Positions 1-14,300 of a stretch of 14,300 nt of DNA are shown piece after piece. A model generated the notes under the pieces. It saw nothing but the letters and a program-made list of their open reading frames with translations, made no database searches and was not told the DNA's origin. Where the stretch lies: IMG/VR virus record IMGVR_UViG_2671180490_000011, positions 1 to 14,300 of that record; one strand, given 5' to 3'. The translations under genes were made by a program, and so were the position numbers. The stretch is from a virus. Taxonomy: Duplodnaviria > Heunggongvirae > Uroviricota > Caudoviricetes. Numbering within the stretch: position 1 is the first letter of the stretch; each line of letters opens with the position of its first letter.

Positions 1-1020
1 GGGAAAAATATCATCAGATGGCTGCTTAAAAAAAGAACAAATGGTAGTGTCCGCTATTGCCAGTACACCTCATAATGCCTGGCATAGCAAGCCCTTTTCT
101 TGTGTTGTCAAGACATTTGGCAACGTTCAAACATCTGTTTAGAAATGCCAAATTGTTGATCTAACAAATAAACCTGTATAAACAGAACACCATTTAATCT
201 ATTCCCCTGTGTAACCCACCACATCACACAATAAAAACAAAAAACTTTAATTATATTTCATAGCACACAAAAGTCAATAGAAGCCCTTTCGTGCTCCTAC
301 GTAAAAAATCCATCACTTTTCCACTGATACATCAATTCAAGGCGTTATATGTGTTCCTTAGCACATATAACATTTATTATGTTAAATGGATTTTGGCCTA
401 TATTTTGACCTGCACCCGCATAAACACTGGTTTCATCGCTTACAGCCCTTGTGAGACGTGGTGCTGTTTCTAGCATCTGATCCGACATAAAACCGATCAT
501 TCTCGTGTTTAGTGAAAGTTTAGTGAGAGACATTACAGAAAGGCTTTCTGTGTAATGATTTAATAGGTAAAAACGATGTTGATTACGCAAGAAAATTCCT
601 TGCTGATATTTGGGGATTCTGGATTTTCCAGATCGGGGGGCGCTGAAAATCGCGTTAAGCACCTCTCGCAATCTAGCCATAAGGGAAGGGATATAGGTAT
701 TAAGATGTATTTATAGCTATTTATGGCTATTTATTTTTTATTTACCTTTACTTAAAAATAACCTTATAAATCAATAAGATACATAATTATCTGTTTATAT
801 TTTAATCAATTAAATCAAGTTTAATACCCTTAAATCACCTGAAAATAGCCTTAAATACCCCAATAATTAATTTTAAGGTTTTCCGTGTTCTCTTCCGCAT
901 TATGAAAATGCAAAATAAGGCACAAAACAAGCGCACAGACGCATTAAACACACATCACCTATCCCTATACCGAGTAATGAAAACAGCGTTAGAATGCGTC
1001 CTGTTGCGTTCTGGAGATTT

Positions 1021-1179
1021 TCAGAAATCCTCTCTAAGCCATTTCAACTCACTAAGGAGTTTTCTTTCTTCGTTCTCTCTCTGTTTACGCTCTAGCCAGG
1101 CTTTTCCTTCTGGCGTAGACAGGAACTTACGAGCGTGAATCTTGCGGTTATTACGTTTGATTGCTGCAATGTTTTTCAT
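1021..1179 (-). CDS. hypothetical small basic protein (52 aa); below the length cut-off of the supplied ORF track
   Basis: Hand translation of the reverse complement: ATG at 1179..1177, TGA stop at 1023..1021, product MKNIAAIKRNNRKIHARKFLSTPEGKAWLERKQRENEERKLLSELKWLREDF. AGAGG lies 6 nt upstream of the ATG. No family recognised. Overlaps antisense to the weaker + ORF 902..1138, which lacks an RBS. Confidence 0.3.
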   Translation of the reverse strand: MKNIAAIKRNNRKIHARKFLSTPEGKAWLERKQRENEERKLLSELKWLREDF

Positions 1180-1784
1180 CGTGTGCCTCTGTATTCATAT
1201 GAAAATTAACAAGTTACATACTACACAGGGAGACTACGCATAAAACACAATACAAGTAAAGATACATTTTCAAGACAATAGGAGCCATAAAGCGCCTTTG
1301 ATGGTTATACCAAAAAATAAGCGCCGTAGGCGTATCCACTAAAAAGGGCTTTTTCACAAAAGCTATGAAGTCTTAGCAGTTCTTCTCTTATCAGGCACCC
1401 GTTGTACTCCGGTGGACGAAACCGTGCTAGAGCTTGATTCTTTCCCGATCAAGTTAGGTTTTGAAGAGGTGGGCTTTAATCCACTATTGCACTTAAAACT
1501 CTTCCCATCATTTAGCCTGTTTATCCTCTGCAACGTCTCACGACGTGTAGCATCATTGGACACCGCGCCAGGTGTGGAACATCTTGCTAAGAGTTTTGGT
1601 AGAAGGTTTAGAGACGGTGGCACGTCTTCCAGCTTCAAAGGAACTTGTTACGAGGTTGAGCCTGGGAACTACTCGCCCATACGTGTTACACTACCAAAGC
1701 CCATAACAACGTATAGGCGTTTGTAAGTGATAACAGAAGATACAATTTCTTAGAGAAGTTAAGCTAAGTTATTAATTTTCTTAA

Positions 1785-1830
1785 TGGTGCCGATAATAGG
1801 AGTCGAACCTACGACCTTCGCATTACGAAT
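1785..1830 (-). other. partial tRNA-Thr(CGU) gene (thrW-like), 3' 46 nt only; putative prophage attachment-site core (attR-type repeat)
   Basis: Reverse complement reads ATTCGTAATGCGAAGGTCGTAGGTTCGACTCCTATTATCGGCACCA: anticodon loop TTCGTAA (anticodon CGT), variable loop, T-stem/loop GTAGG-TTCGACT-CCTAT, 3' acceptor strand TATCGGC, discriminator A and CCA. The 5' acceptor strand, D-arm and 5' anticodon stem are absent; identity breaks at tRNA position about 31. Match to thrW is from memory of the E. coli sequence. Orientation places the integrated element on the high-coordinate side, consistent with the tail-fibre genes. Confidence 0.55.
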
Positions 1831-2343
1831 TATAAGAATCCGCTTCTAATTCAAAGCATTACCCCATCAACACTGCGCTCACACGTCCCACCACATCAAA
1901 ACATGTAAAGCCTTGCAAGTCATTGCGAGGCCTTATGTGTCTCAGTTTTGTCCCACCTTGTATTACGACTTGCATAGCCAATGAAGATAAATGTGACAAC
2001 AAACGGCGCAGCAGTCTTCTTTTCCTTCATACTTTCCCCACCCAGCATGCATACCTTCTACCATAACTGTAGTGAATGTCTGTTATGAGCGAGGAACGGA
2101 CGTTGCCACGGAACGGACCTAACCATTAACGAGCATCCACCAGCAAGCTATGAGGAAATTATGCAAAGCTAGCATGCCAGGGCCTATACCCAAAAACGGC
2201 CTCGGAATTTTTGATAACAGTTCGAAGTCTAATAATAAAAAAGGGAATCTCTCGGATCTGAAGGTCCCCCTTTAAGCGAGAAAAGGACATTTAATTTTCA
2301 AGTCGTGGAAATCGAAGGCAGTACCTGCCGGAGCCATTGCATC

Positions 2344-2368
2344 GAAGCCTGGATAATATCCAGGCTTC
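2344..2368 (-). terminator. perfect 11-bp stem / 3-nt loop hairpin 34 nt downstream of the oxidoreductase stop; possible terminator or RNA-stability element
   Basis: gaagcctggat-aat-atccaggcttc is a perfect inverted repeat; a second small hairpin ggcag-tac-ctgcc lies at 2318-2330. No U-tract follows on the - strand, so intrinsic-terminator function is uncertain. Confidence 0.3.
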
Positions 2369-2401
2369 ACCAGGCTCATTTATAAAATGCTGTGGTAAGG
2401 A

Positions 2402-3394
2402 TTACTCAACGGTCACGACTATTTTGCCTACCTGGCCATTGGCCTCCATATAGCGCTGGGCGTCTGCAATCTCTTCGAACGGGAACGTTTTATCGATGAC
2501 CGGTTTCAGTTTGCCAGCTCGTAAGCCTTCTGTGATGAAGGATTTTGCGCGCGCCATTTTTTCAGAGTCAGTCGTGATTTCAAACAGCTCATATCCACGC
2601 AGAGTGAGATGCTTACCGAGAATATTAAATACAGGCACAAGCATGTCACGGCTATCGAGCGCGCCATACTGGAAAAACATGCCCTGTGGTGCCATCACCT
2701 GCGTCAGTTTTGCCACGTCCGGCCCGCCGACGGGATCAAAAACAATATGGGCACCTACGCCATCTGTTGTTCGATTGATTTCAGCAACCATATCCAGCTC
2801 TGCAGTAGCAATGACGGCAGCTGCGCCAGCTTTCAGTAGCATTTCACTTTTTTCAGAGGTCCGAGTGAGTGCAATTGGGTTTGCACCCAGCATGTTAGCT
2901 ATCTGTATGGCAGCCAGACCTACGCTGCTTGATGCTGCGCGGATCACAACATTCTGACCAGCCTGAAGATTGCCATATTCAACCAGCGCACCATAAGCGG
3001 TGACATACATCATCCAGCTTGCAGCGGCTTCCTCAAAAGAAAGGTTTTCAGGATGCTTCACGATAGCATGCACAGGTGCATTGACCACTTCACCGTACAT
3101 ACCGTATTCATTAAACATAAATGAAGGGATAACGCTGACCAGATCTCCAATGGTAAACTCATCAACATTCTCACCTACGGCCTGCACAACGCCAGCCGCT
3201 TCATAACCAAGACGTGCCGGAAATTCCGGCTCAATAACATACTGGCCGTTGCGGTACATGATTTCTGCACGGTTGATACCTATCGCATGTACGCGGATCT
3301 GCACTTCACCCGCTGTCGGCGCAGGCACCTGTACATCAACAAATTCCAGCACTTCCGGGCCTCCGGTACGGTTAAAGGTAATAACTTTAGACAT
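2402..3394 (-). CDS. NAD(P)H:quinone oxidoreductase-like protein, medium-chain dehydrogenase/reductase (zinc-type alcohol dehydrogenase) superfamily
   Basis: 330-aa ORF, ATG at 3394 with GAGAG-type SD 6-7 nt upstream, TAA stop at 2404..2402. N-terminal motif GEVQIRVHAIGINRAEIMYRNGQY matches the QOR/zeta-crystallin signature; central glycine-rich nucleotide-binding stretch VVIRAASSSVGLAAIQIANMLGA. Family is firm; substrate is unknown. Confidence 0.85.
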   Translation of the reverse strand: MSKVITFNRTGGPEVLEFVDVQVPAPTAGEVQIRVHAIGINRAEIMYRNGQYVIEPEFPARLGYEAAGVVQAVGENVDEFTIGDLVSVIPSFMFNEYGMYGEVVNAPVHAIVKHPENLSFEEAAASWMMYVTAYGALVEYGNLQAGQNVVIRAASSSVGLAAIQIANMLGANPIALTRTSEKSEMLLKAGAAAVIATAELDMVAEINRTTDGVGAHIVFDPVGGPDVAKLTQVMAPQGMFFQYGALDSRDMLVPVFNILGKHLTLRGYELFEITTDSEKMARAKSFITEGLRAGKLKPVIDKTFPFEEIADAQRYMEANGQVGKIVVTVE

Positions 3395-3543
3395 ATTCAG
3401 CTCTCTTCAGTTAAAGGCACTCCTTCAGAATAATGCCGAAGGGATGCCCGAATCATTTGTGAACAATCTACGTTGTTACAAACACACCAGAAATAGCTGA
3501 GAGGGAACTTCAGTATTAATTATCCATTAACAATCCGCCTGCT

Positions 3544-4446
3544 TCAGCGGATCTGCGTGGCCAGAACATCACTGAACCAGTCGATAAAGACGCGCACTTT
3601 TGGAGAAAGGTAGCGCCTGTCGGGATACATCACTGACACGGGCTTTGACACCGATGGGTATTGCGGCAGAATCTCTTCAAGAGCGCCGGAAGCAATATGG
3701 GGAGCAACGGCATCATAGGTAGCTTGGATAATGCCCAGACCAGCCAGAGCACAGGAAAGCAGAATATCGGAATTATCAACCAGCAGGCTGCCCGCAGGAC
3801 GTAGTGAAACAATGCTCCCGTTTTCGATAAACTTCCATTCCATGACGTCACGACTGTGGTCGCTAAAAAAGTTAATTGCCCGATGTTTATCCAGATCCGC
3901 AAGTGTTTCTGGCCGCTCATGCTGCTGCAGGTAAGACGGGGCTGCACAGGTAACCATCCGGATGTCACCAAGACGTCTGGATATAAAACTAGAATCCTGA
4001 AGCGCACCCAGGCGGATAAGGCAATCTACGCCTTCCGTGATCAAATCAGTTTTTTTATCCGAAGAAACCAGCACAACTTCAATACCTGGATACAGTGTCT
4101 GAAAATGCCTAAGATTAGGGATCAATATGGAATGCGCCAGCGCCAGGGGCACATCAAGTCTCAGGCGTCCTCGCGGTGGAAGAGTCGGTGAAAAACTGGC
4201 CATCATGTCATTAACTTCGGCCAGGACATGCCTGGCATGATGATAGAACTCATCCCCTTCAGCAGTAACGCTCAGCTTTCGGGTTGTGCGATAAATGAGT
4301 TTTACACCCAGATCATGCTCTATCTGCTGTATTGCTTTGCTCACGGTGGGGCGATGGATCTGAAGTACATCAGCAGCTTTAGTGAAGCTACCCTGCTCAA
4401 CAACCTGTATGAAAATATTTAGGTATTCAATCATGTTGGCATGCAC
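3544..4446 (-). CDS. LysR-family transcriptional regulator
   Basis: 300-aa ORF with N-terminal helix-turn-helix (YLNIFIQVVEQGSFTKAADVLQIHRPTVSKAIQQIEHDLGVKL) and a C-terminal co-inducer-binding-type domain of typical LysR length. GTG at 4446 has AGGTGA 5 nt upstream; alternative ATG at 4434 (MIEYLN...). TGA stop at 3546..3544. Lies 149 bp upstream of, and co-oriented with, the oxidoreductase gene. Confidence 0.85.
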   Translation of the reverse strand: MHANMIEYLNIFIQVVEQGSFTKAADVLQIHRPTVSKAIQQIEHDLGVKLIYRTTRKLSVTAEGDEFYHHARHVLAEVNDMMASFSPTLPPRGRLRLDVPLALAHSILIPNLRHFQTLYPGIEVVLVSSDKKTDLITEGVDCLIRLGALQDSSFISRRLGDIRMVTCAAPSYLQQHERPETLADLDKHRAINFFSDHSRDVMEWKFIENGSIVSLRPAGSLLVDNSDILLSCALAGLGIIQATYDAVAPHIASGALEEILPQYPSVSKPVSVMYPDRRYLSPKVRVFIDWFSDVLATQIR

Positions 4447-4819
4447 GTGATCACCTGTTTTGTAGGCTGTTTAAAACTGACATTGTAAAGTAAACCATCC
4501 CAACGACATTATTTTTTTCGTTCAGATAAGGGCTTGTCCGCTTCTGGCACATAGCAGACCAGAGACACTGGCGTAAAGCCATGGAGGATCGGTGGGAGGA
4601 GGTAAAAATCCTCTCATGCAAAAAATACGCAAAATCGATAACAGTTGGAAATCATTCAATACTCGCACTATCGGAAGTTCACCAGCCAGTCGTAGCACGT
4701 TCTTGCATACGACGTGGCTACGGGTTTCGAGACCGGTCCAATCATCAAACGAAACATAAAATTAATTCACATTATGAGGAAAAGTATCTTTTTTGTACTA
4801 TGTAAATTCAAAGGCTTAG

Positions 4820-5689
<870 letters not shown>

Positions 5690-5708
5690 GTCTTTAAGTG
5701 ATAAGCAT

Positions 5709-5757
5709 AAACCGCAGCACGTCATGCATACGTCGTGTCTGCGGTTTTTCTTTTTTG
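5709..5757 (+). terminator. rho-independent terminator between convergent genes (GIY-YIG gene and tfa); may act bidirectionally
   Basis: Stem aaaccgcag (5709-5717) pairs with ctgcggttt (5739-5747), followed by TTTTTCTTTTTT to about 5756 on the + strand. On the - strand the downstream tract is less U-rich. Confidence 0.6.
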
Positions 5758-5758
5758 C

Positions 5759-6343
5759 TTACACGGTGTCTGGTTCTTCTGGCCACTCAATATCAGGTGC
5801 AGTTGATGTATCAACACGGTTCAGCAACACCCGATACTTCTTCCAGGCTTCCAGCAACGAGGTTTCTTCCTCCGTTGCAATTTCCAGATCTGCAGCATCC
5901 TGAAGCGGCGCAATATGCTCACTGGCTACCTGCATCAGGTTGTTTTTTGTTTCTTCCGCCTCCCGGATCCGGAACAGTTTTTCTGCTTCCGTATCCTTCA
6001 CCCAGGCTGTGCCGTTCCACTTCTGAAACTCCCCTTCCGGCGATAACCAGGTAACATTTTCCGGTAACGGACCGAGTTCAGAAATAAATAACGCGTCGCC
6101 GGAAGCCACGTCATAAACCGTTTTACCCCGATGATCTTCAACGAGATGCCACGATGACTCATCACTGTTGAAAACAGCCACGAAGCCAGCCGGAATATCT
6201 GGCGGTGCAATATCGGTACTGTTTGCTGGCAGACCTGTATGAGGCGGAATATATGCATCACCTTCACCAATAAATTCATTAGTTCCGGCCAGCAGATTAT
6301 AAATTTTTATGGTCCGTGGTTGTTCACTCATTCTGAATGCCAT
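5759..6343 (-). CDS. tfa: tail fibre assembly protein (phage lambda Tfa homologue)
   Basis: 194-aa product [48 protein letters not shown]... is near-identical along its length to lambda Tfa as I remember it. The ATG overlaps the stop of the upstream stf (TAATG), the classic stf-tfa coupling. Confidence 0.9.
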
Positions 6344-8505
6344 TATGCAAGCCTCACAATATAGTTAAATGCGATGTTTTTGACGGTGTTTTCCGCGTTA
6401 CCAGCAGCGTTAACGGTGATGGTGTGTCCATGTGAACCAATCGCAACGGAGTGCGTATGAGCACCAATACCGACAGTATGTGCATGTGCGCCTGCGCTTG
6501 CAGCTGTGCCGGACAGCGAGTGGGTATGAGCACCATCTGATGATGTCTTCCCTGCATTACGAGTCTGGCCACTACCGCTTGTTGTGCTCATAATCCCCGC
6601 GCTTAGATTTGAAATCGCGGTATAACCATTAGGGAAAATGCTCGTGTTCGTGCCACCAAATGCACCGGAACTCTTGTGTTGGTGCGCACCGGCACTATTT
6701 GCGGTCCCGCTAATACTATGGGTATGCGCCCCGGTGTTATTCGTGGATTTGGTTCCGTAATCAAACGACGATGTGGTTTTCGTCCCCAAATCCGTACTGG
6801 ATGCGCTGGCGCTGTGGGTGTGCGATTTAATGCCGTCCTGTTCCTGAGATAATACGGCCCGACCACTGGCGGGCTTGCCCTTAATCGTCCAGCCACGCAT
6901 ATCAGGGATCACGCCTGACGGATAAGCGGCTGCAAGTTTCGGGTAAGCAGATTTGTCAAAAGTCTGCCCCTGCATCAGGGCATAACCAGACGGAACGGTA
7001 TCTGATGGCCACGGGATTGGTGCGCCGACTGGGTAGCTTTCTGGTGGAAGATTTTTCGAGGTATAAACTTCTGCCCAGTCTTCCTCAAAACCATAACCGT
7101 CTCTTGAAGAACGGTAGAACAGACCACCATTTCTGTAATGCGCCTTCATCTGCAATGTCCGGCAACTTCCGACTCCGGTATAGAAGTTAACCAGAATATA
7201 GCTGTTGCCAGAGCGGGTGACATTGTAAGCGCCTGATTCGGCATTCCAGGGAACGCCACCATCCGCATCGGCATATGTATCCGTTGCCCTTCTGGCAAAA
7301 GCAGCCACATGCGCGGCGGTTAAAGTAATATCTTTGGAACCATCAAACTCAACACCAGAAACCAGTCTTGGCGTTTGCAGCTTTGTTGCTGTTAATGCAT
7401 TACCGTTCAGACTTGCGGACAGTTTGGTTCCAATAACCAGTTCGCCGGTTGCGTTATCAATAGCAAACGGTCTTAATGTATTCCAGCCACCATAAACATC
7501 ACCTTGATTGGTAAGCAGCAGGTAAGTTTTAGCGCCATCATTACGCCATAATGCCCCATACTCCCCACCTATCATTCGAATCTGATTACCACCACGCGCT
7601 ACAATTTCGTCTGTGGCAAAAAGTTTTTTGCACGACAAGTTATCGTTAACGATTAACGAATGAGACTCATAAAAACCACGCCCACTCTTAAAATCAAGGA
7701 TAACGTCCGCCGCGATACATTCAGTCGCCGGATTTGTTGCCCCAAACTTATAGGTCGTATCATTAACAACGAGATCAGCACCAGGTGCGGATATTGACAG
7801 GCCATCTTCGATAAACGCAAAAACAGGGAAAGCAGCGCCATCAACATAGAACACAGAGCGCAAATCATCGCCCTTATTACTCATCATTATTGAGTGGATG
7901 GCTCGTTCATTGTTTTGATATTGCCAGAACATTCCATAAGCATAACGCCCCCTGTCAGTCCAGCCACCAGGCATAACAAATCCGTTAAACTCGCAGTTAT
8001 TCATCGGATCGCCTGCGGTTCGCGTTGCCGTGGTGATAATGACCCTTGATGCCAGTTCGCTTACTGAGCCAGCAGAACGCATAACAACAACAGGGTAATA
8101 TTTTCCAGATGTTGCACCTGCAGGAGCGTTAACCCGCACATAACGCATACCACGCTTATCAGCAAAGTCTGTTTTACTGACCGCGTTAATGTTGTTCAGG
8201 AAGCGTCCCTTATCGGGTATATCAGCGCCGTTCTGGTCTTTCTGCAGACGTTTCTCTGCATTGTCATAGGCTGATTTTACTGCCTTTGGCGTTGCCGCCT
8301 GTGACTCGGAAGTGCTGTTGGTCGCACTGCTGAGCTGTACTATCCCCTTTTTCGTCGTGCTCGCATCCTCAAGCGCCACGGCGGATGCAATATCCTCTGC
8401 CCGTTTTGCCGCTGTCTCAGCGCGCGTTGCTGCAGATTCCGCCGTACTTTTGCTCTGTGCTGCCGCCGTCGCACTGCCAGCTGCCTCTGTCGCCTTCGTG
8501 GATGC
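6343..8505 (-). CDS. stf: side tail fibre protein, 5'-truncated copy (C-terminal about 720 aa) with its own central domain; 5' end lost at the N/junction at 8506
   Basis: Translation contains the lambda Stf motif [24 protein letters not shown], a central domain (about residues 100-510 of the track ORF) different from that of the 8553-12128 copy, and a shared C-terminal His-rich region ([55 protein letters not shown]). The track ORF 6343..8553 is an artefactual fusion: its first 15 codons are a tfa 5' fragment joined through the N at 8506. Confidence 0.6.
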
Positions 8506-8506
8506 N
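8506..8506. other. single N at a sequence junction (stf internal repeat region joined to a tfa 5' fragment)
   Basis: Literal n in the sequence; sequence identity to the 6296-6343 tfa/stf junction starts immediately after it. Confidence 0.9.
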
Positions 8507-8553
8507 TTATAAATTTTTATGGTCCGTGCTTGTTCACTCATTCTGAATGCCAT
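8507..8553 (-). other. duplicated 5' fragment of tfa (first 15 codons), truncated at the N
   Basis: 8507-8590 is a near-copy of 6296-6380 with 2 substitutions (one changes Tfa Pro9 to Ala). The encoded [15 protein letters not shown] stops at the N at 8506. Confidence 0.6.
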
Positions 8554-11500
8554 TATGCGAGCCTCACAATATAGTTAAATGCGATGTTTTTGACGGTGTT
8601 TTCCGCGTTACCAGCAGCGTTAACGGTGATGGTGTGTCCATGTGAACCAATCGCAACAGAGTGCGTATGAGCACCAATACCGACAGTATGCGCGTGTGCA
8701 CCCGCAGATGCTGCTGTGCCGGACAGTGAGTGTGTATGGTTTCCTTCTGAAGATGATTTACCTACCCATTGGGAGGTGCCACTGGTTAATGAGCCACTGA
8801 TACCAACCTGATTAGTCCCGCTAACTTGAGTACTCCCTGCCGGAAACATTCCAGTAGGTTGACTCCCGCTATTCGTTCTGGGCCCAGTCTGACTATGTTG
8901 GTGGGCCCCAGCTGAACTTGTAGAGCCGCTCAGACTGTGCGTATGCGCCCCGGTGTTATTCGTGGATTTAGTGCCGTAATCAAACGACGATGTGGTTTTC
9001 GTCCCCAAATCCGTACTGGATGCGCTGGCGCTGTGGGTGTGCGATTTAATGCCATCCTGTTCCTGAGACAATACGGCACGACCACTGGCGGGCTTGCCCT
9101 TAATCGTCCAGCCACGCATATCAGGGATCACGCCTGACGGATAAGCGGCTGCAAGTTTCGGGTAAGCAGATTTGTCAAAAGTCTGCCCCTGCATCAGGGC
9201 ATAACCAGACGGAACGGTATCTGATGGCCACGGGATTGGTGCACCGACTGGATAAAACTCTGCAGGAGGATGAGCCGAGGTGTAAAGCTGCGCCCACGGC
9301 GACCAGTTTGCGTCGGTCGTATCCCGTCGTGAACGAATAAATGCCGGAGCATGAGCACCGCTTGTACCACTCCAGCCGATGAGTAACTCACCTTCGCCAA
9401 CGGCTGTCATCCCTTTCAGGTGAATGATATTTCCATACGCTGTTGGATATCCGTTGTTATACACCTCGTATAACTCAAGACCTGCTGCCCCCTGCGTATT
9501 GTCTGTCAGCGCGGCTACCCGACCTTTTGAAGCCAGATTAACTGATGATACTGCTGTTCCACCTGACGGTAGCGCCCCGATCTCTGATGCCGTTGGCTTA
9601 TTTCTGGAGTTATAGTCCCTTCGCCAGCCAGGTGAATAATCTGTTCCGTGATTAATATAGGTAAACTGGGCGTTGGTTGTTCCGCCACCGCTGGATGTGG
9701 TCGGAGTGGTAATGCGGATCGTCATCGCTGACTTTATCCCCATTACTTCAATGACAGCTCCGGCGAGATGAATATTACCGCAGCCAGTATCAGTAATGAT
9801 TTTATTATTGCCATAAGACCAGGAACCCTTGCACATCCAGTATGGATGGTTAAATGCTCCCTGAGAATCCAGCCACTCGATAAACTGTGCAGTCGTCCAG
9901 TTTCCTGTTGTTGTGCTTACTGACCCACCGAAGGCACGGCAGGCACCAATATTTTTCGTAAAGGTGTCTTTGCCAGGGATATCCGCACCGTTCTGATCTT
10001 TCTGCAGACGTTTCTCAGCATTGTCATTGGCTGCTTTTACTGCCTTTGGCGTTGCCGCCAGCGTTTCAGACGTGCTGTTGGTCGCGCTGCTTAGCTGGAT
10101 TATCCCTTTCTGTGCTGTCGTTGCATCCTGTGCGGTGTATTTCCCGTTAGCCAGGTCATACGCGGCCTTAACGGCTTTTGGTGTTGCCGCCAGTGACTCG
10201 GAAGTGCTGTTAGTCGCACTACTGAGCTGTACTATCCCCTTTTTCGTCGTGCTCGCATCCTCAAGCGCCACGGCGGATGCAATATCCTCTGCCCGTTTTG
10301 CCGCTGTCTCGGCGCGCGTTGCCGCGGATTCCGCCGTACTTTTGCTCTGTGCTGCCGCCGTCGCACTGCCAGCTGCCTCTGTCGCCTTCGTGGATGCTGT
10401 CGTGGCGCTGCCCTTCGCTGCGGACGCTTGTCTGGTCGCCTCATCTTTTGAAGCAGACGCCGATGATGCCGATGACGCCGCCGAACTGGCGGACGATGCG
10501 GCAGCCGTTTTTGAGGATTCTGCACGGGTTTCCGACGCTTTCGCGTTCGTTTCGGATGTCTTCGCTGCGGAAGCTGACCTCGCTGCTGCCGTGGCCTGCT
10601 CAGTGGCTTCGCCAGCCTTCGTTGTGGCTGTTGAAGCGGATGATGCGGCGCTTTCTGCCGATTTTCCGGCGGCGGTGGCACTGGCTGAGGCCTGCCCGGC
10701 ACTTGTTGACGCGGCGCTGGCAGACGACGCAGCCGCTGTTTTTGAGCCTGCCGCAGCTGAGGCACTCTGTCCCGCTGCCGTTTCAGAAGACCTGGCGTTC
10801 GTCTCGGACGTTTTGGCCGCCTTCGCAGAATTTGCAGCCGNNNNNNNNNNNGTCGCACTGCCAGCTGCCTCTGTCGCCTTCGTGGATGCTGTCGTGGCGC
10901 TGCCCTTCGCTGCGGACGCTTGTCTGGTCGCCTCATCTTTTGAAGCAGACGCCGATGATGCCGATGACGCCGCCGAACTGGCGGACGATGCGGCAGCCGT
11001 TTTTGAGGATTCTGCGCTGGTTTCCGACGCTTTCGCGTTCGTCTCGGATGTCTTCGCTGCGGAAGCAGACCTCGCTGCTGCGCTGGCCTGTACAGCGGCT
11101 TCGCCAGCCTTCGTTGTGGCTGTTGAAGCGGACGATGCAGCACTTTCTGCCGATTTTCCGGCGGCGGTGGCACTGGCTGAGGCCTGCCCGGCACTTGTTG
11201 ACGCGGCACTGGCAGACGACGCAGCCGCTGTTTTTGAGCCTGCCGCAGCCGAGGCGCTCTGTCCCGCTGCCGTTTCAGAAGACCTGGCGTTCGTCTCGGA
11301 CGTTTTGGCCGCCTTCGCAGAATTTGCAGCCGCCGTCGCCGAGGAAGCTGCGCTACTGGCGCTTGATGATGCGTTCGTTTCTGATGATTTTGCCGCCTCT
11401 TTTGAAGCCGACGCATCCCGGGCTGAGGTGGCAGCTTCTGACGCTTTCGTGGTCGCGGTGGATGCAGAAGTGGCTGCTGATTGTTGTGACGCTGCCGCAT

Positions 11501-12128
11501 TCGTTTCTAACGTTTTCGCCGCACCGGCACTGGTAGCCGCCGCGCTTTTTGAGGACTCTGCAGCGGCAGCACTTTTTGAGGCTTCAGTGGCCTTTGTTGA
11601 TGCCGTTCCTGCGCTGGAAGACGCTGACTGAGCCGACGAAGCGGCCTGTCCGGCTGACGTGCTGGCTGCACGTGCTGAATCTGCAGCATCAGTCGCATGG
11701 GTTGCCGCCTCACGGGCTGATGTGCTGGCATCGCTGGCTGATTTCTTCGCGGCTGCCGTGTTCTGTGCCACCGCGGACGCGTTACGCGCCACCTCTTCCA
11801 CCATCAGCTCAAAACGGCGCAGTGCCTCCGGACGGGCATCATCCTCCGTCATGGCACCGAGAAAATCATTCAGCGTACCGGGTCGGGAATCTTCATACAC
11901 GGTGATGGTCCCGGCATGTGACGGCGGGAATCCTTCCACCAACAGAATAACGCTGTACTGACCGTACTCAACGTCCATGCTGTAACGCCCGGCTTCATCC
12001 GGATTTTCTGAGGCCAGCGTGTTCACCACCACCGTGGTGCTGTTACGTTTTGCTTTCAGCTGGATTGTGCAGTTCTGTACCGGTTTTCCTGTGCCGTCTT
12101 TCAGTACACCTGAAATCTTTACTGCCAT
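8553..12128 (-). CDS. stf: side tail fibre protein (phage lambda Stf homologue), interrupted by an 11-N gap at 10841-10851
   Basis: N-terminus [37 protein letters not shown]... is near-identical to lambda Stf. Followed by a long Ala/Ser/Thr-rich low-complexity region, the [24 protein letters not shown] motif (twice), a central domain, and the His-rich C-terminus ending [11 protein letters not shown]. Likely start is the ATG at 12128 (GGGGTGA SD 5 nt upstream); the track begins at an in-frame GTG at 12134. TAA stop at 8555..8553 overlaps the tfa-fragment ATG. Confidence 0.75.
10360..11332. repeat. two ~481-bp direct repeat units inside the stf Ala/Ser-rich region (10360-10840 and 10852-11332), separated exactly by the 11-N gap
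   Basis: Both units begin gtcgcactgccagctgcctctgtcgccttcgtggatgct and end tttgcagccg. Protein segments [18 protein letters not shown]...[10 protein letters not shown] are repeated with a few substitutions (AAVQASAA vs ATEQATAA; SETSAES vs SETRAES). Confidence 0.7.
10841..10851. other. assembly gap (11 N) within stf
   Basis: Literal run of n. Confidence 0.95.
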
Positions 12129-12139
12129 ATTCACCCCAC

Positions 12140-12165
12140 AAAAAAGCCCGCCTGAACCGGCGGGC
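12140..12165 (-). terminator. intrinsic terminator immediately upstream of the stf start (terminates the upstream tail gene); identical copies at 13197-13222 and 14267-14292
   Basis: On the - strand: GCCCGCC-GGTTCA-GGCGGGC followed by TTTTTT, then the GGGGTGA SD and the stf ATG. Confidence 0.5.
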
Positions 12166-12198
12166 TGTCATAACACTGTGTTACCTGGCTAATCAGAA

Positions 12199-12199
12199 N
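12199..12199. other. single N at a junction between stf upstream region and an internal stf position
   Basis: Literal n; flanks are ...ttacctggctaatcagaa | n | ctttctgccgattttccgg..., the latter being the internal stf sequence also found at 11143. Confidence 0.9.
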
Positions 12200-13185
12200 C
12201 TTTCTGCCGATTTTCCGGCGGCGGTGGCACTGGCTGAGGCCTGCCCGGCACTTGTTGACGCGGCACTGGCAGACGACGCAGCCGCTGTTTTTGAGCCTGC
12301 CGCAGCCGAGGCGCTCTGTCCCGCTGCCGTTTCAGAAGACCTGGCGTTCGTCTCTGACGTTTTTGCCGCCTTCGCGGAATTTCCTGCCGCTGTTGCCGAG
12401 GAAGCTGCGCTACTGGCGCTCGAGGATGCGTTCGTTTCTGATGATTTCGCTGCCTCTTTTGAGGCCGCCGCATCCCGGGCTGAGGTGGCAGCTTCTGACG
12501 CCTTCGTGGTCGCGGCGGATGCAGAAGTGGCTGCTGATTGTTGTGACGCTGCCGCATTCGTTTCTGACGTTTTCGCCGCAGCGGCACTGGTAGCTGCCGC
12601 GCTTTTTGAGGACTCTGCAGCAGCAGCACTTTTCGATGCTTCACTGGCCTTTGTTGATGCCGTTCCTGCGCTGGAAGATGCTGACTGAGCCGACGACGCG
12701 GCCTGTCCGGCTGACGTGCTGGCTGCGCGTGCTGAGCCTGCAGCATCAGTCGCATGGGTTGCCGCCTCACGTGCTGATGTGCCGGCATCGCTGGCTGACT
12801 TCTTCGCGGCTGCCGTGTTCTGTGCCACCGCGGACGCGTTACGCGCCACCTCTTCCACCATCAGTTCAAAACGGCGCAGTGCCTCAGGACGGGCATCATC
12901 CTCCGTCATGGCACCGAGAAAATCATTCAGCGTACCGGGTCGGGAATCTTCATACACGGTGATGGTCCCGGCATGTGACGGCGGGAATCCTTCCACCAAC
13001 AGAATAACGCTGTACTGACCGTACTCAACGTCCATGCTGTAACGCCCGGCTTCATCCGGATTTTCTGAGGCCAGCGTGTTCACCACCACCGTGGTGCTGT
13101 TACGTTTTGCTTTCAGCTGGATTGTGCAGTTCTGTACCGGTTTTCCTGTGCCGTCTTTCAGTACACCTGAAATCTTTACTGCCAT
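12200..13185 (-). CDS. stf: stf 5' fragment, copy B (N-terminal about 330 aa of side tail fibre protein, truncated at N 12199); distinct allele
   Basis: Same N-terminus as the 8553-12128 stf but with about 8 amino-acid substitutions (DASTSA to DAGTSA, DAADSA to DAAGSA, TKATEA to [15 protein letters not shown] to SAAAAKTSE and others). ATG at 13185, with SD and terminator upstream. Confidence 0.45.
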
Positions 13186-13255
13186 ATTCACCCCACAAAA
13201 AAGCCCGCCTGAACCGGCGGGCTGTCATAACACTGTGTTACCTGGCTAATCAGAA

Positions 13256-13266
13256 NNNNNNNNNNN
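13256..13266. other. assembly gap (11 N)
   Basis: Literal run of n. Confidence 0.95.
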
Positions 13267-14255
13267 GCGCTTTCTGCCGATTTTCCGGCGGCGGTGGCAC
13301 TGGCTGAGGCCTGCCCGGCACTTGTTGACGCGGCGCTGGCAGACGACGCAGCCGCTGTTTTTGAGCCTGCCGCAGCTGAGGCACTCTGTCCCGCTGCCGT
13401 TTCAGAAGACCTGGCGTTCGTCTCGGACGTTTTGGCCGCCTTCGCAGAATTTGCAGCCGCCGTCGCCGAGGAAGCTGCGCTACTGGCGCTTGATGATGCG
13501 TTCGTTTCTGATGATTTTGCCGCCTCTTTTGAAGCCGACGCATCCCGGGCTGAGGTGGCAGCTTCTGACGCTTTCGTGGTCGCGGTGGATGCAGAAGTGG
13601 CTGCTGATTGTTGTGACGCTGCCGCATTCGTTTCTAACGTTTTCGCCGCACCGGCACTGGTAGCCGCCGCGCTTTTTGAGGACTCTGCAGCGGCAGCACT
13701 TTTTGAGGCTTCAGTGGCCTTTGTTGATGCCGTTCCTGCGCTGGAAGACGCTGACTGAGCCGACGAAGCGGCCTGTCCGGCTGACGTGCTGGCTGCACGT
13801 GCTGAATCTGCAGCATCAGTCGCATGGGTTGCCGCCTCACGGGCTGATGTGCTGGCATCGCTGGCTGATTTCTTCGCGGCTGCCGTGTTCTGTGCCACCG
13901 CGGACGCGTTACGCGCCACCTCTTCCACCATCAGTTCAAAACGGCGCAGTGCCTCAGGACGGGCATCATCCTCCGTCATGGCACCGAGAAAATCATTCAG
14001 CGTACCGGGTCGGGAATCTTCATACACGGTGATGGTCCCGGCATGTGACGGCGGGAATCCTTCCACCAACAGAATAACGCTGTACTGACCGTACTCAACG
14101 TCCATGCTGTAACGCCCGGCTTCATCCGGATTTTCTGAGGCCAGCGTGTTCACCACCACCGTGGTGCTGTTACGTTTTGCTTTCAGCTGGATTGTGCAGT
14201 TCTGTACCGGTTTTCCTGTGCCGTCTTTCAGTACACCTGAAATCTTTACTGCCAT
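13267..14255 (-). CDS. stf: stf 5' fragment, copy C (N-terminal about 330 aa), truncated at N gap; protein-identical to the 5' end of the 8553-12128 stf
   Basis: Translation matches copy A over the region shown. ATG at 14255, upstream terminator at 14267-14292; the window ends shortly after. Confidence 0.45.
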
Positions 14256-14300
14256 ATTCACCCCACAAAAAAGCCCGCCTGAACCGGCGGGCTGTCATAA

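Follow-up and report, generated by a model that had tools for sequence, protein, structure and literature searches.

A 46-nt thrW fragment as the probable distal attachment core of a lambdoid prophage stacked against a second thrW-integrated element

The phage tail-fibre genes considered here are accompanied by a short piece of a tRNA gene, which raises the question of whether this piece marks the end of an element integrated into that gene and, if so, which of the neighbouring genes belong to the element. The window, i.e., the whole stretch of DNA that was analysed, is 14,300 nt long. A sequence-only reading had described positions 1785-1830 as a tRNA-Thr 3' fragment running from the anticodon loop to CCA without the 5' half, and alignment to E. 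coli thrW, the gene of tRNA-Thr(CGU), has borne this out with 46 of 46 bases identical. On the plus strand the fragment reads TGGTGCCGATAATAGGAGTCGAACCTACGACCTTCGCATTACGAAT; its reverse complement, ATTCGTAATGCGAAGGTCGTAGGTTCGACTCCTATTATCGGCACCA, is the 3' part of thrW. The match is likewise 46/46 in the intact genes of STEFF_1 (L002 7719-7764, tRNA annotated at 7719-7794) and K-12 (L005 2402-2447, gene at 2372-2447). The fragment starts at nucleotide 31 of the 76-nt gene, which is the final base of the 5' strand of the anticodon stem, and holds the complete anticodon loop with anticodon CGT and all that follows through to the CCA end. Identity to thrW ends sharply at 1830, where the window continues with 'tataagaatccg' and the tRNA gene with 'gcgctgctctac', and the DNA lying 5' of tRNA nucleotide 31 in the window is unrelated to thrW.

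The fragment does not have the complete cloverleaf (acceptor 5' strand, D arm, anticodon stem) of a functional tRNA-Thr gene. A scan of the window with ARAGORN was negative for tRNA genes, and with the Rfam tRNA model the fragment scored 14.2 bits against a gathering score of 29; both outcomes are as expected because the fragment is half a gene. A single copy of the core is present in the window when up to 3 mismatches are allowed, with matches in 0 of 200 shuffled controls, and the CCA-proximal 18-nt part likewise occurs once within the window. Antisense transcripts of K-12 thrW and ptwF have been reported as candidates for A-to-I editing by TadA, with UACG in a hairpin loop (2026 paper, PMC13170351). 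The corresponding antisense anticodon-arm hairpin was looked for at window 1815-1835 on the plus strand and rejected by inspection: UACG is present and the 5' stem strand is missing, so the hairpin cannot form.

Sun et al. have printed the attP and attL/attR core of Shigella phage SfI as these same 46 bases and have stated that the SfI core is identical in SfII, SfV, SfX, and P22 (PMC3636060). The minus strand of the window fragment is identical to the printed core and to the 46-nt 'attP core' annotated in the SfI GenBank record JX509734, which begins 14 nt past the stop codon of int and precedes gtrA, gtrB, and gtrI. This agrees with the proposal that the fragment is the duplicated core of a tyrosine-integrase element. 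As regeneration of a tRNA gene entails, the core is the 3' part (nucleotides 31-76) of the thrW that is intact in STEFF_1 and K-12. In addition, an int-side arm was taken from L003, a related prophage in E. coli, and joined to the core and to the window from 1831 onward to give a reconstructed attP. The reconstructed attP is found uninterrupted in the free SfIV, SfI, SfV, and SfII genomes at 98-99% identity, to window position ~1909 (79 nt beyond the core), and with blastn the SfI match reaches window ~1955. In P22-like Salmonella phages the reconstruction, including the 79 nt beyond the core, is matched at ~79%. In free Sf phages, arm, core, and int thus form one unbroken stretch. Among E. 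coli prophages the arm match extends to window 2090-2105 in CUPF06, E2528-C1, and EC93 and to 2104 in ECCHD184. The orientation that had been deduced, with the element on the tail-fibre side, is upheld by the identity of the arm from 1831 onward with the attP arm of free Sf phages and by the position of thrW-proA on the high-coordinate side in relatives. The boundary placed near 1830 can be made exact and experimentally grounded for annotation, with prophage-specific DNA from 1831 and a shared core at 1785-1830.

Similarity is also seen on the other side of the core. The 15-20 nt just 3' of CCA are alike in the native chromosome (TTAAAATCAAAGAGTTAC), the Sf-type int-side arm (TTAAAATCAATAAGTTAC), and the arm of a 13-kb element described below (TTAAGAAAATTAATAACT); the coordinates of these CCA-flanking stretches are window 1765-1784, L001 19985-20004, and L003 22049-22068. 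These look-alike stretches suggest that att similarity reaches imperfectly past the 46-nt core.

Practically no credence can be given to the idea that the fragment is unconnected with mobile DNA, be it a tRNA pseudogene in decay or a fortuitous similarity. Such an origin would fit the ARAGORN result and the fact that annotation pipelines have left the stretch unannotated, but it is refuted by the shuffle test, by the comparison of the cores of K-12 and relatives, and by the attP reconstruction. The match is 46/46 where none is expected by chance, the truncation is sharp and does not consist of scattered mutations, and the identical fragment recurs at prophage ends in many genomes.

In integration of the lambda/P22 type, Int is a tyrosine recombinase that exchanges strands within a core shared by attP and attB, and Int together with Xis carries out the reverse reaction. 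The tRNA gene is made whole again by the copy that the phage brings in, and its displaced 3' fragment remains at the distal end. The 46 bases are very probably such a core, which remained as attR on the distal side when a P22/Sf-type tyrosine integrase inserted a lambda-like prophage into thrW; they would form an internal junction of a tandem array, with an alcohol dehydrogenase (ADH) gene, a LysR regulator gene, and a GIY-YIG gene as prophage cargo. The phage attP would bring its own copy of thrW nucleotides 31-76, and strand exchange by Int within the shared identity would rebuild an intact thrW beside int on the proA side. A promoter-less copy without its 5' part would be left at the other prophage end, beyond the tail-fibre genes and the cargo slot. 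Because every core compared is identical, the crossover position within the 46 nt cannot be read from the sequence. Excision would presumably use the distal and proximal copies through Int and an adjacent excisionase-like protein; in relatives, the predicted integrase and Xis-like protein carry Phage_integrase and HTH_17 domains. Bearing on excision competence, the tail-fibre region in the window is rearranged, and the GDSC2BY4G relative of the prophage has an IS2 insertion and pseudogenes. The features of the window are collected in Table 1.

Table 1. Features of the 14,300-nt window, with strand and basis of assignment.
Feature	Position	Strand	Basis or remark
IS600 copy within the 13-kb element, right end	1-72	.	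Same junction in E. coli 8479 (L008)
Terminal arm of second thrW-integrated element, ~13 kb	73-1784	.	Follows intact thrW in STEFF_1, 8479, APEC O1, and many others
46-nt 3' fragment of thrW (tRNA nucleotides 31-76)	1785-1830	-	att core of P22/Sf-type integrases; probable distal junction (attR) of lambdoid prophage
18-nt CCA-proximal sub-core, direct repeat of 13-kb element	1785-1802	-	CTCCTATTATCGGCACCA in tRNA sense
Phage-side att arm	1831-2105	.	First 80-125 nt shared with free SfI/SfII/SfIV/SfV attP; whole stretch conserved among E. coli thrW prophages
Variable cargo slot	2106-4535	-	Conserved phage borders at ~2100 and 4536; content differs in relatives
Zn-dependent alcohol dehydrogenase family gene	2402-3394	-	Pfam ADH_N/ADH_zinc_N
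LysR regulator gene	3544-4446	-	Pfam HTH_1/LysR_substrate
Conserved right border of slot	4536-4726	.	Kept beside different cargo in CUPF06, E2528-C1, and ECCHD184
LEM-3-like GIY-YIG domain gene, conserved prophage accessory	4916-5689	+	Pfam PF22945; same position in GDSC2BY4G, CUPF06, EC93, and ECCHD184
Tail-fibre assembly gene	5759-6343	-	Pfam Caudo_TAP, E = 1e-44
Side-tail-fibre genes of lambdoid prophage	6343-14261	-	Pfam phage_tail_N in three successive ORFs, with Collar and fibre repeats

The other prophage end can be described from relatives, and from these the cognate int and an intact thrW of the window's prophage would be expected on the high-coordinate side. Without exception, the related E. 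coli genomes have their intact thrW and proA there, oriented alike, and a tyrosine integrase is found 14 nt from the CCA end of the tRNA gene. ECCHD184 has an HTH_17 excisionase-like gene followed by a 372-aa integrase (Phage_integrase domain) that ends 14 nt from intact thrW, and then proA. Measured from start to start, 39,098 bp separate this intact thrW from the distal core, which has the same orientation and is followed by an arm of the window type (96% identical to window 1784-2104) and by the GIY-YIG gene that the window also has. GDSC2BY4G contains window 1781-7000 at 99.8% identity, adjoining yagP'-paoD; at its far end the same integrase protein, WP_001132557.1, lies beside another 46-nt core, with a P22-like prophage beyond that core. 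The third example is CUPF06, in which intact thrW lies 87 kb to the high-coordinate side of a composite junction. Relatives (39.1 kb in ECCHD184; also GDSC2BY4G and CUPF06) therefore have the intact thrW and the integrase tens of kb away in the same orientation that the sequence-only reading had led one to expect, and related strains have the empty site. None of the contrary evidence that the sequence-only reading had named (lack of an intact tRNA gene and integrase, an intact tRNA gene on the low-coordinate side, or a failing alignment) was encountered: proA and the intact tRNA gene are on the high-coordinate side in every relative case, and the match to tRNA-Thr holds.

The 5426 complete E. 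coli genomes searched show how heavily this site is used. An Sf-type int lies directly beside intact thrW-proA in 1216 of them, and the empty site yagP'-thrW-proA was detected in only 948. The latter count was made with a synthetic yagP'-thrW-proA query at a coverage of at least 80%; the matches listed include ATCC 8739, 100% covered at 99.4% identity. A megablast search with the whole window found no single place covering at least 80% of it among the same 5426 genomes, and the exact 96-nt junction pattern is absent from a collection of species-representative genomes.

The low-coordinate side had implicitly been taken as chromosome, and here the sequence-only reading was mistaken, since this DNA belongs to the arm of another element integrated at thrW. 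At 98% identity, window 73-1784 matches the DNA directly after intact thrW in STEFF_1, APEC O1, 8479, and many other strains, and also an arm in CUPF06. Native thrW is followed instead by 'ttaaaatcaaagagttacc...yagP''. A native downstream region on the low side was rejected on these grounds: the empty site runs into yagP', and the low-side DNA is an insert bounded by 18 nt. In CUPF06 the arm is the end of a 13.3-kb insert (L004 6778-20125) that is bounded by the 18-nt repeat and adjoins yagP'. The repeat consists of the last 18 nt of thrW and reads TGGTGCCGATAATAGGAG on the plus strand of the window. Only these 18 nt are present at the other end of the CUPF06 element (L004 6778-6795), beside its integrase and yagP'. 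The integrase is a 425-aa protein of the tyrosine type with DUF6538 and Phage_integrase domains, and the element also encodes an E-type capsid protein, a Dit-like protein, an HTH_36 protein, and a resolvase. It has the appearance of a small cryptic phage or satellite. In the window the arm of the element abuts the CCA end of the core, and the integrase end is seen only in CUPF06. E. coli 8479 matches from window base 1, with the IS600 transposase CDS there ending 29 nt into the match, and all other genomes match only from window 73. The IS600 copy cuts off the resolvase gene of the element, which is annotated as intact in CUPF06.

As read from these comparisons, the fragment would serve two elements at once: it is predicted to be an internal junction of a tandem array, where the whole 46 nt are attR for the lambdoid prophage and the CCA-proximal 18 nt double as the repeat at the proximal end of the 13-kb element. 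The array would run from proA and thrW through the lambdoid prophage and the 46 nt to the 13-kb element with its IS600 and on to yagP'. A composite junction of this type occurs in 21 of the 5426 complete genomes, and CUPF06 is the closest of them. The chain in CUPF06 consists of yagP', the 18-nt repeat, the 13.3-kb element, a 46-nt core, a 47.9-kb lambdoid prophage, a 46-nt core, a 39.2-kb second prophage, intact thrW, and proA. Arrays of two or three elements are thus found in both GDSC2BY4G and CUPF06. RefSeq records leave the displaced thrW fragments unannotated. Tandem integration at thrW has also been produced experimentally, with SfI integrated at attL of a resident SfX (PMC3306764).

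The IS600-bearing arm beside intact thrW in 8479 suggests that arrival of the 13-kb element first and of the phage second is somewhat more likely. In the reversed order the lambdoid prophage would have come first and the 13-kb element would then have entered the 3' end of the displaced fragment, so that the fragment would be both the prophage attR and the attB of the second element. This order appears rather unlikely: the element-first state is common (with the same IS600 junction beside intact thrW in 8479, and without IS600 in many strains), and an incoming Sf phage used the proximal attL of the resident phage, i.e., the intact tRNA gene (PMC3306764). However, excision of the prophage would regenerate the state with the element beside thrW, and the counter-evidence is therefore not decisive. 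In favour of the reversed order, the repeat that the 13-kb element requires is no more than the 3'-terminal 18 nt of thrW, which the fragment contains; both orders of arrival end in an identical structure; and the prophage-only state beside yagP' is seen in GDSC2BY4G.

The ADH, LysR, and GIY-YIG genes lie inside the prophage, in the sense that they are between the att core and the structural genes. They occupy the stretch between the att arm (1831-~2100) and the tail-fibre assembly gene, and the 99.8% match in GDSC2BY4G, which abuts yagP', includes them; the earlier assignment of these genes to the prophage thus stands. The first two occupy a cargo slot that was defined by pairwise comparison with equivalent slots in L004, L007, L010, L011, and L012. 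The slot contains ADH and LysR in the window and in GDSC2BY4G, a hypothetical gene and a type II restriction-modification pair in CUPF06, IS66 and Avs2 in E2528-C1, an IS fragment and AraC in EC93, two hypothetical genes in ECCHD184, and gtrABC in Sf phages. At its right border an 81-nt relic of a capsid gene was seen (~4624-4704), where PGAP has annotated a partial 'capsid protein' pseudogene in GDSC2BY4G and ECCHD184.

The ADH-LysR cassette itself is promiscuous, and the identical ADH protein is also found in CP4-type islands and beside the integrase of a tRNA-Phe island. The order in CP4-type islands is CbtA/CbeA, further genes, and then DUF932-GTPase-LysR-ADH-Mrr, and the tRNA-Phe island was seen in E. 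coli G3/10 (loci L009, L015, and L020). The identical ADH protein is indexed in 783 blocks of the genome collection, and none of the 8 places listed by an exact look-up of ADH has the context of the window. The possibility that the window LysR is PerR, the regulator of K-12 CP4-6, which would tie the cargo to CP4-6, was rejected at 24% identity.

The presence of this cassette in CP4-type and tRNA-Phe islands and the highly variable content of the slot are points in favour of another account, in which the fragment is only the left junction of the low-side element. An unrelated insertion or deletion would have removed the 5' half of the tRNA gene, site-specific recombination would have had no part in joining the DNA from 1831 onward, and ADH and LysR would come from another island. 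This account is contradicted by the attP reconstruction and is very improbable. The identity break falls exactly at the published 46-nt core boundary, and the adjoining 80-125 nt are the attP arm of free Sf phages, in which they are contiguous with int. The same arm and cargo are found in GDSC2BY4G with yagP' in place of the 13-kb element, the cargo slot is bordered on both sides by conserved phage DNA, and no further thrW core is present between 1831 and the tail genes.

On the far side of the cargo, the side-tail-fibre (stf) region continues in relatives into lom, J, and lambda-like tail and head genes. The 'prophage tail fibre N-terminal' domain is present in complete form at the start of each of three ORFs on the minus strand of the window (8553-12134, 12193-13191, and 13188-14261). 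At 11143, 12200, and 13270 lie direct repeats of ~1.06 kb with 95-99% identity. To judge from these repeats, the 5' part of the side-tail-fibre gene, which encodes the N-terminal domain and is single in relatives, has been triplicated in tandem within 8553-14261.

The 13-kb neighbour could also be a phage satellite that habitually lies beside lambdoid helpers at thrW, with a shared core that would function as helper attR and satellite attL. This suggestion is based on its own integrase, E-type capsid protein, Dit-like tail protein, HTH_36 protein, and resolvase, and it is improbable. If it were true, the shared core would couple or order the excision of both elements and permit composite excision products, and the cargo slot would be a point of exchange of defence and accessory genes between elements stacked at thrW.

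Under the preferred reading of the 46 bases as the attR core of a lambdoid prophage, the dehydrogenase/LysR pair would travel with the phage. The DNA past the core belongs to another mobile element, and prophage and island callers that expect one element per tRNA gene would set wrong limits here. The slot beside the att site swaps serotype-conversion, restriction-modification, Avs2, metabolic, or regulatory cargo. None of these points is new in kind.

Overall, the fragment is an object of an already known kind: it is identical in sequence to the Sf/P22 att core and akin to ptwF of K-12, and tandem occupation of thrW has been documented. Beyond the sequence-only reading, the only additions are the definition of the cargo slot and the recognition of a second, low-side element whose repeat is shorter (18 nt). 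Among the closest known systems are the Sf phages. The core is identical in SfI, SfII, SfIV, SfV, and SfX, with 94-99% identity over 80-125 nt in the adjoining phage arm, and the int genes of Sf phages and related E. coli prophages are 98-99% identical over the 3' 614 nt compared. The layout is also the same, with int and core at one end and an accessory-gene slot beside the core at the other. The slot of Sf phages contains the O-antigen glucosylation genes gtrA, gtrB, and gtr(type), whereas that of the window contains ADH and LysR. SfV and SfI have a Mu-like contractile tail, whereas the side tail fibres encoded in the window are lambda-like (stf/tfa, with lom and J next in relatives). The host context of Sf phages is proA-yaiC, and here it is E. 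coli-like (yagP'/pao).

P22 is a podovirus with a tailspike, and P22-like int and arms have only ~79% DNA identity to the reconstructed attP. The target thrW is nevertheless common to P22 and the present prophage, and the 46-nt core is the same (PMC3636060). K-12 ptwF is a thrW 3' fragment at the intF end of the cryptic prophage CP4-6 and is thus the same type of object at the same chromosomal locus. Its repeat consists of the identical 46 nt and 3 more (49 nt, L005 36707-36755), followed by native yagP-paoD. The core is the same and the flanks differ: as the attR of CP4-6, ptwF is flanked by intF (466 aa, Arm-DNA-bind_3 domain) and the chromosome, whereas the window fragment is flanked by a lambdoid prophage arm and a second mobile element. 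In addition, the integrase of CP4-6 lies beside the distal fragment, whereas the Sf-type int lies beside the intact tRNA gene. In the SfX/SfI array, two elements share one internal att core and the incoming one uses the regenerated tRNA gene (PMC3306764). The neighbour in the window differs from that array in that it is not a phage with a 46-nt core but a 13-kb element with a different integrase and 18 nt duplicated.
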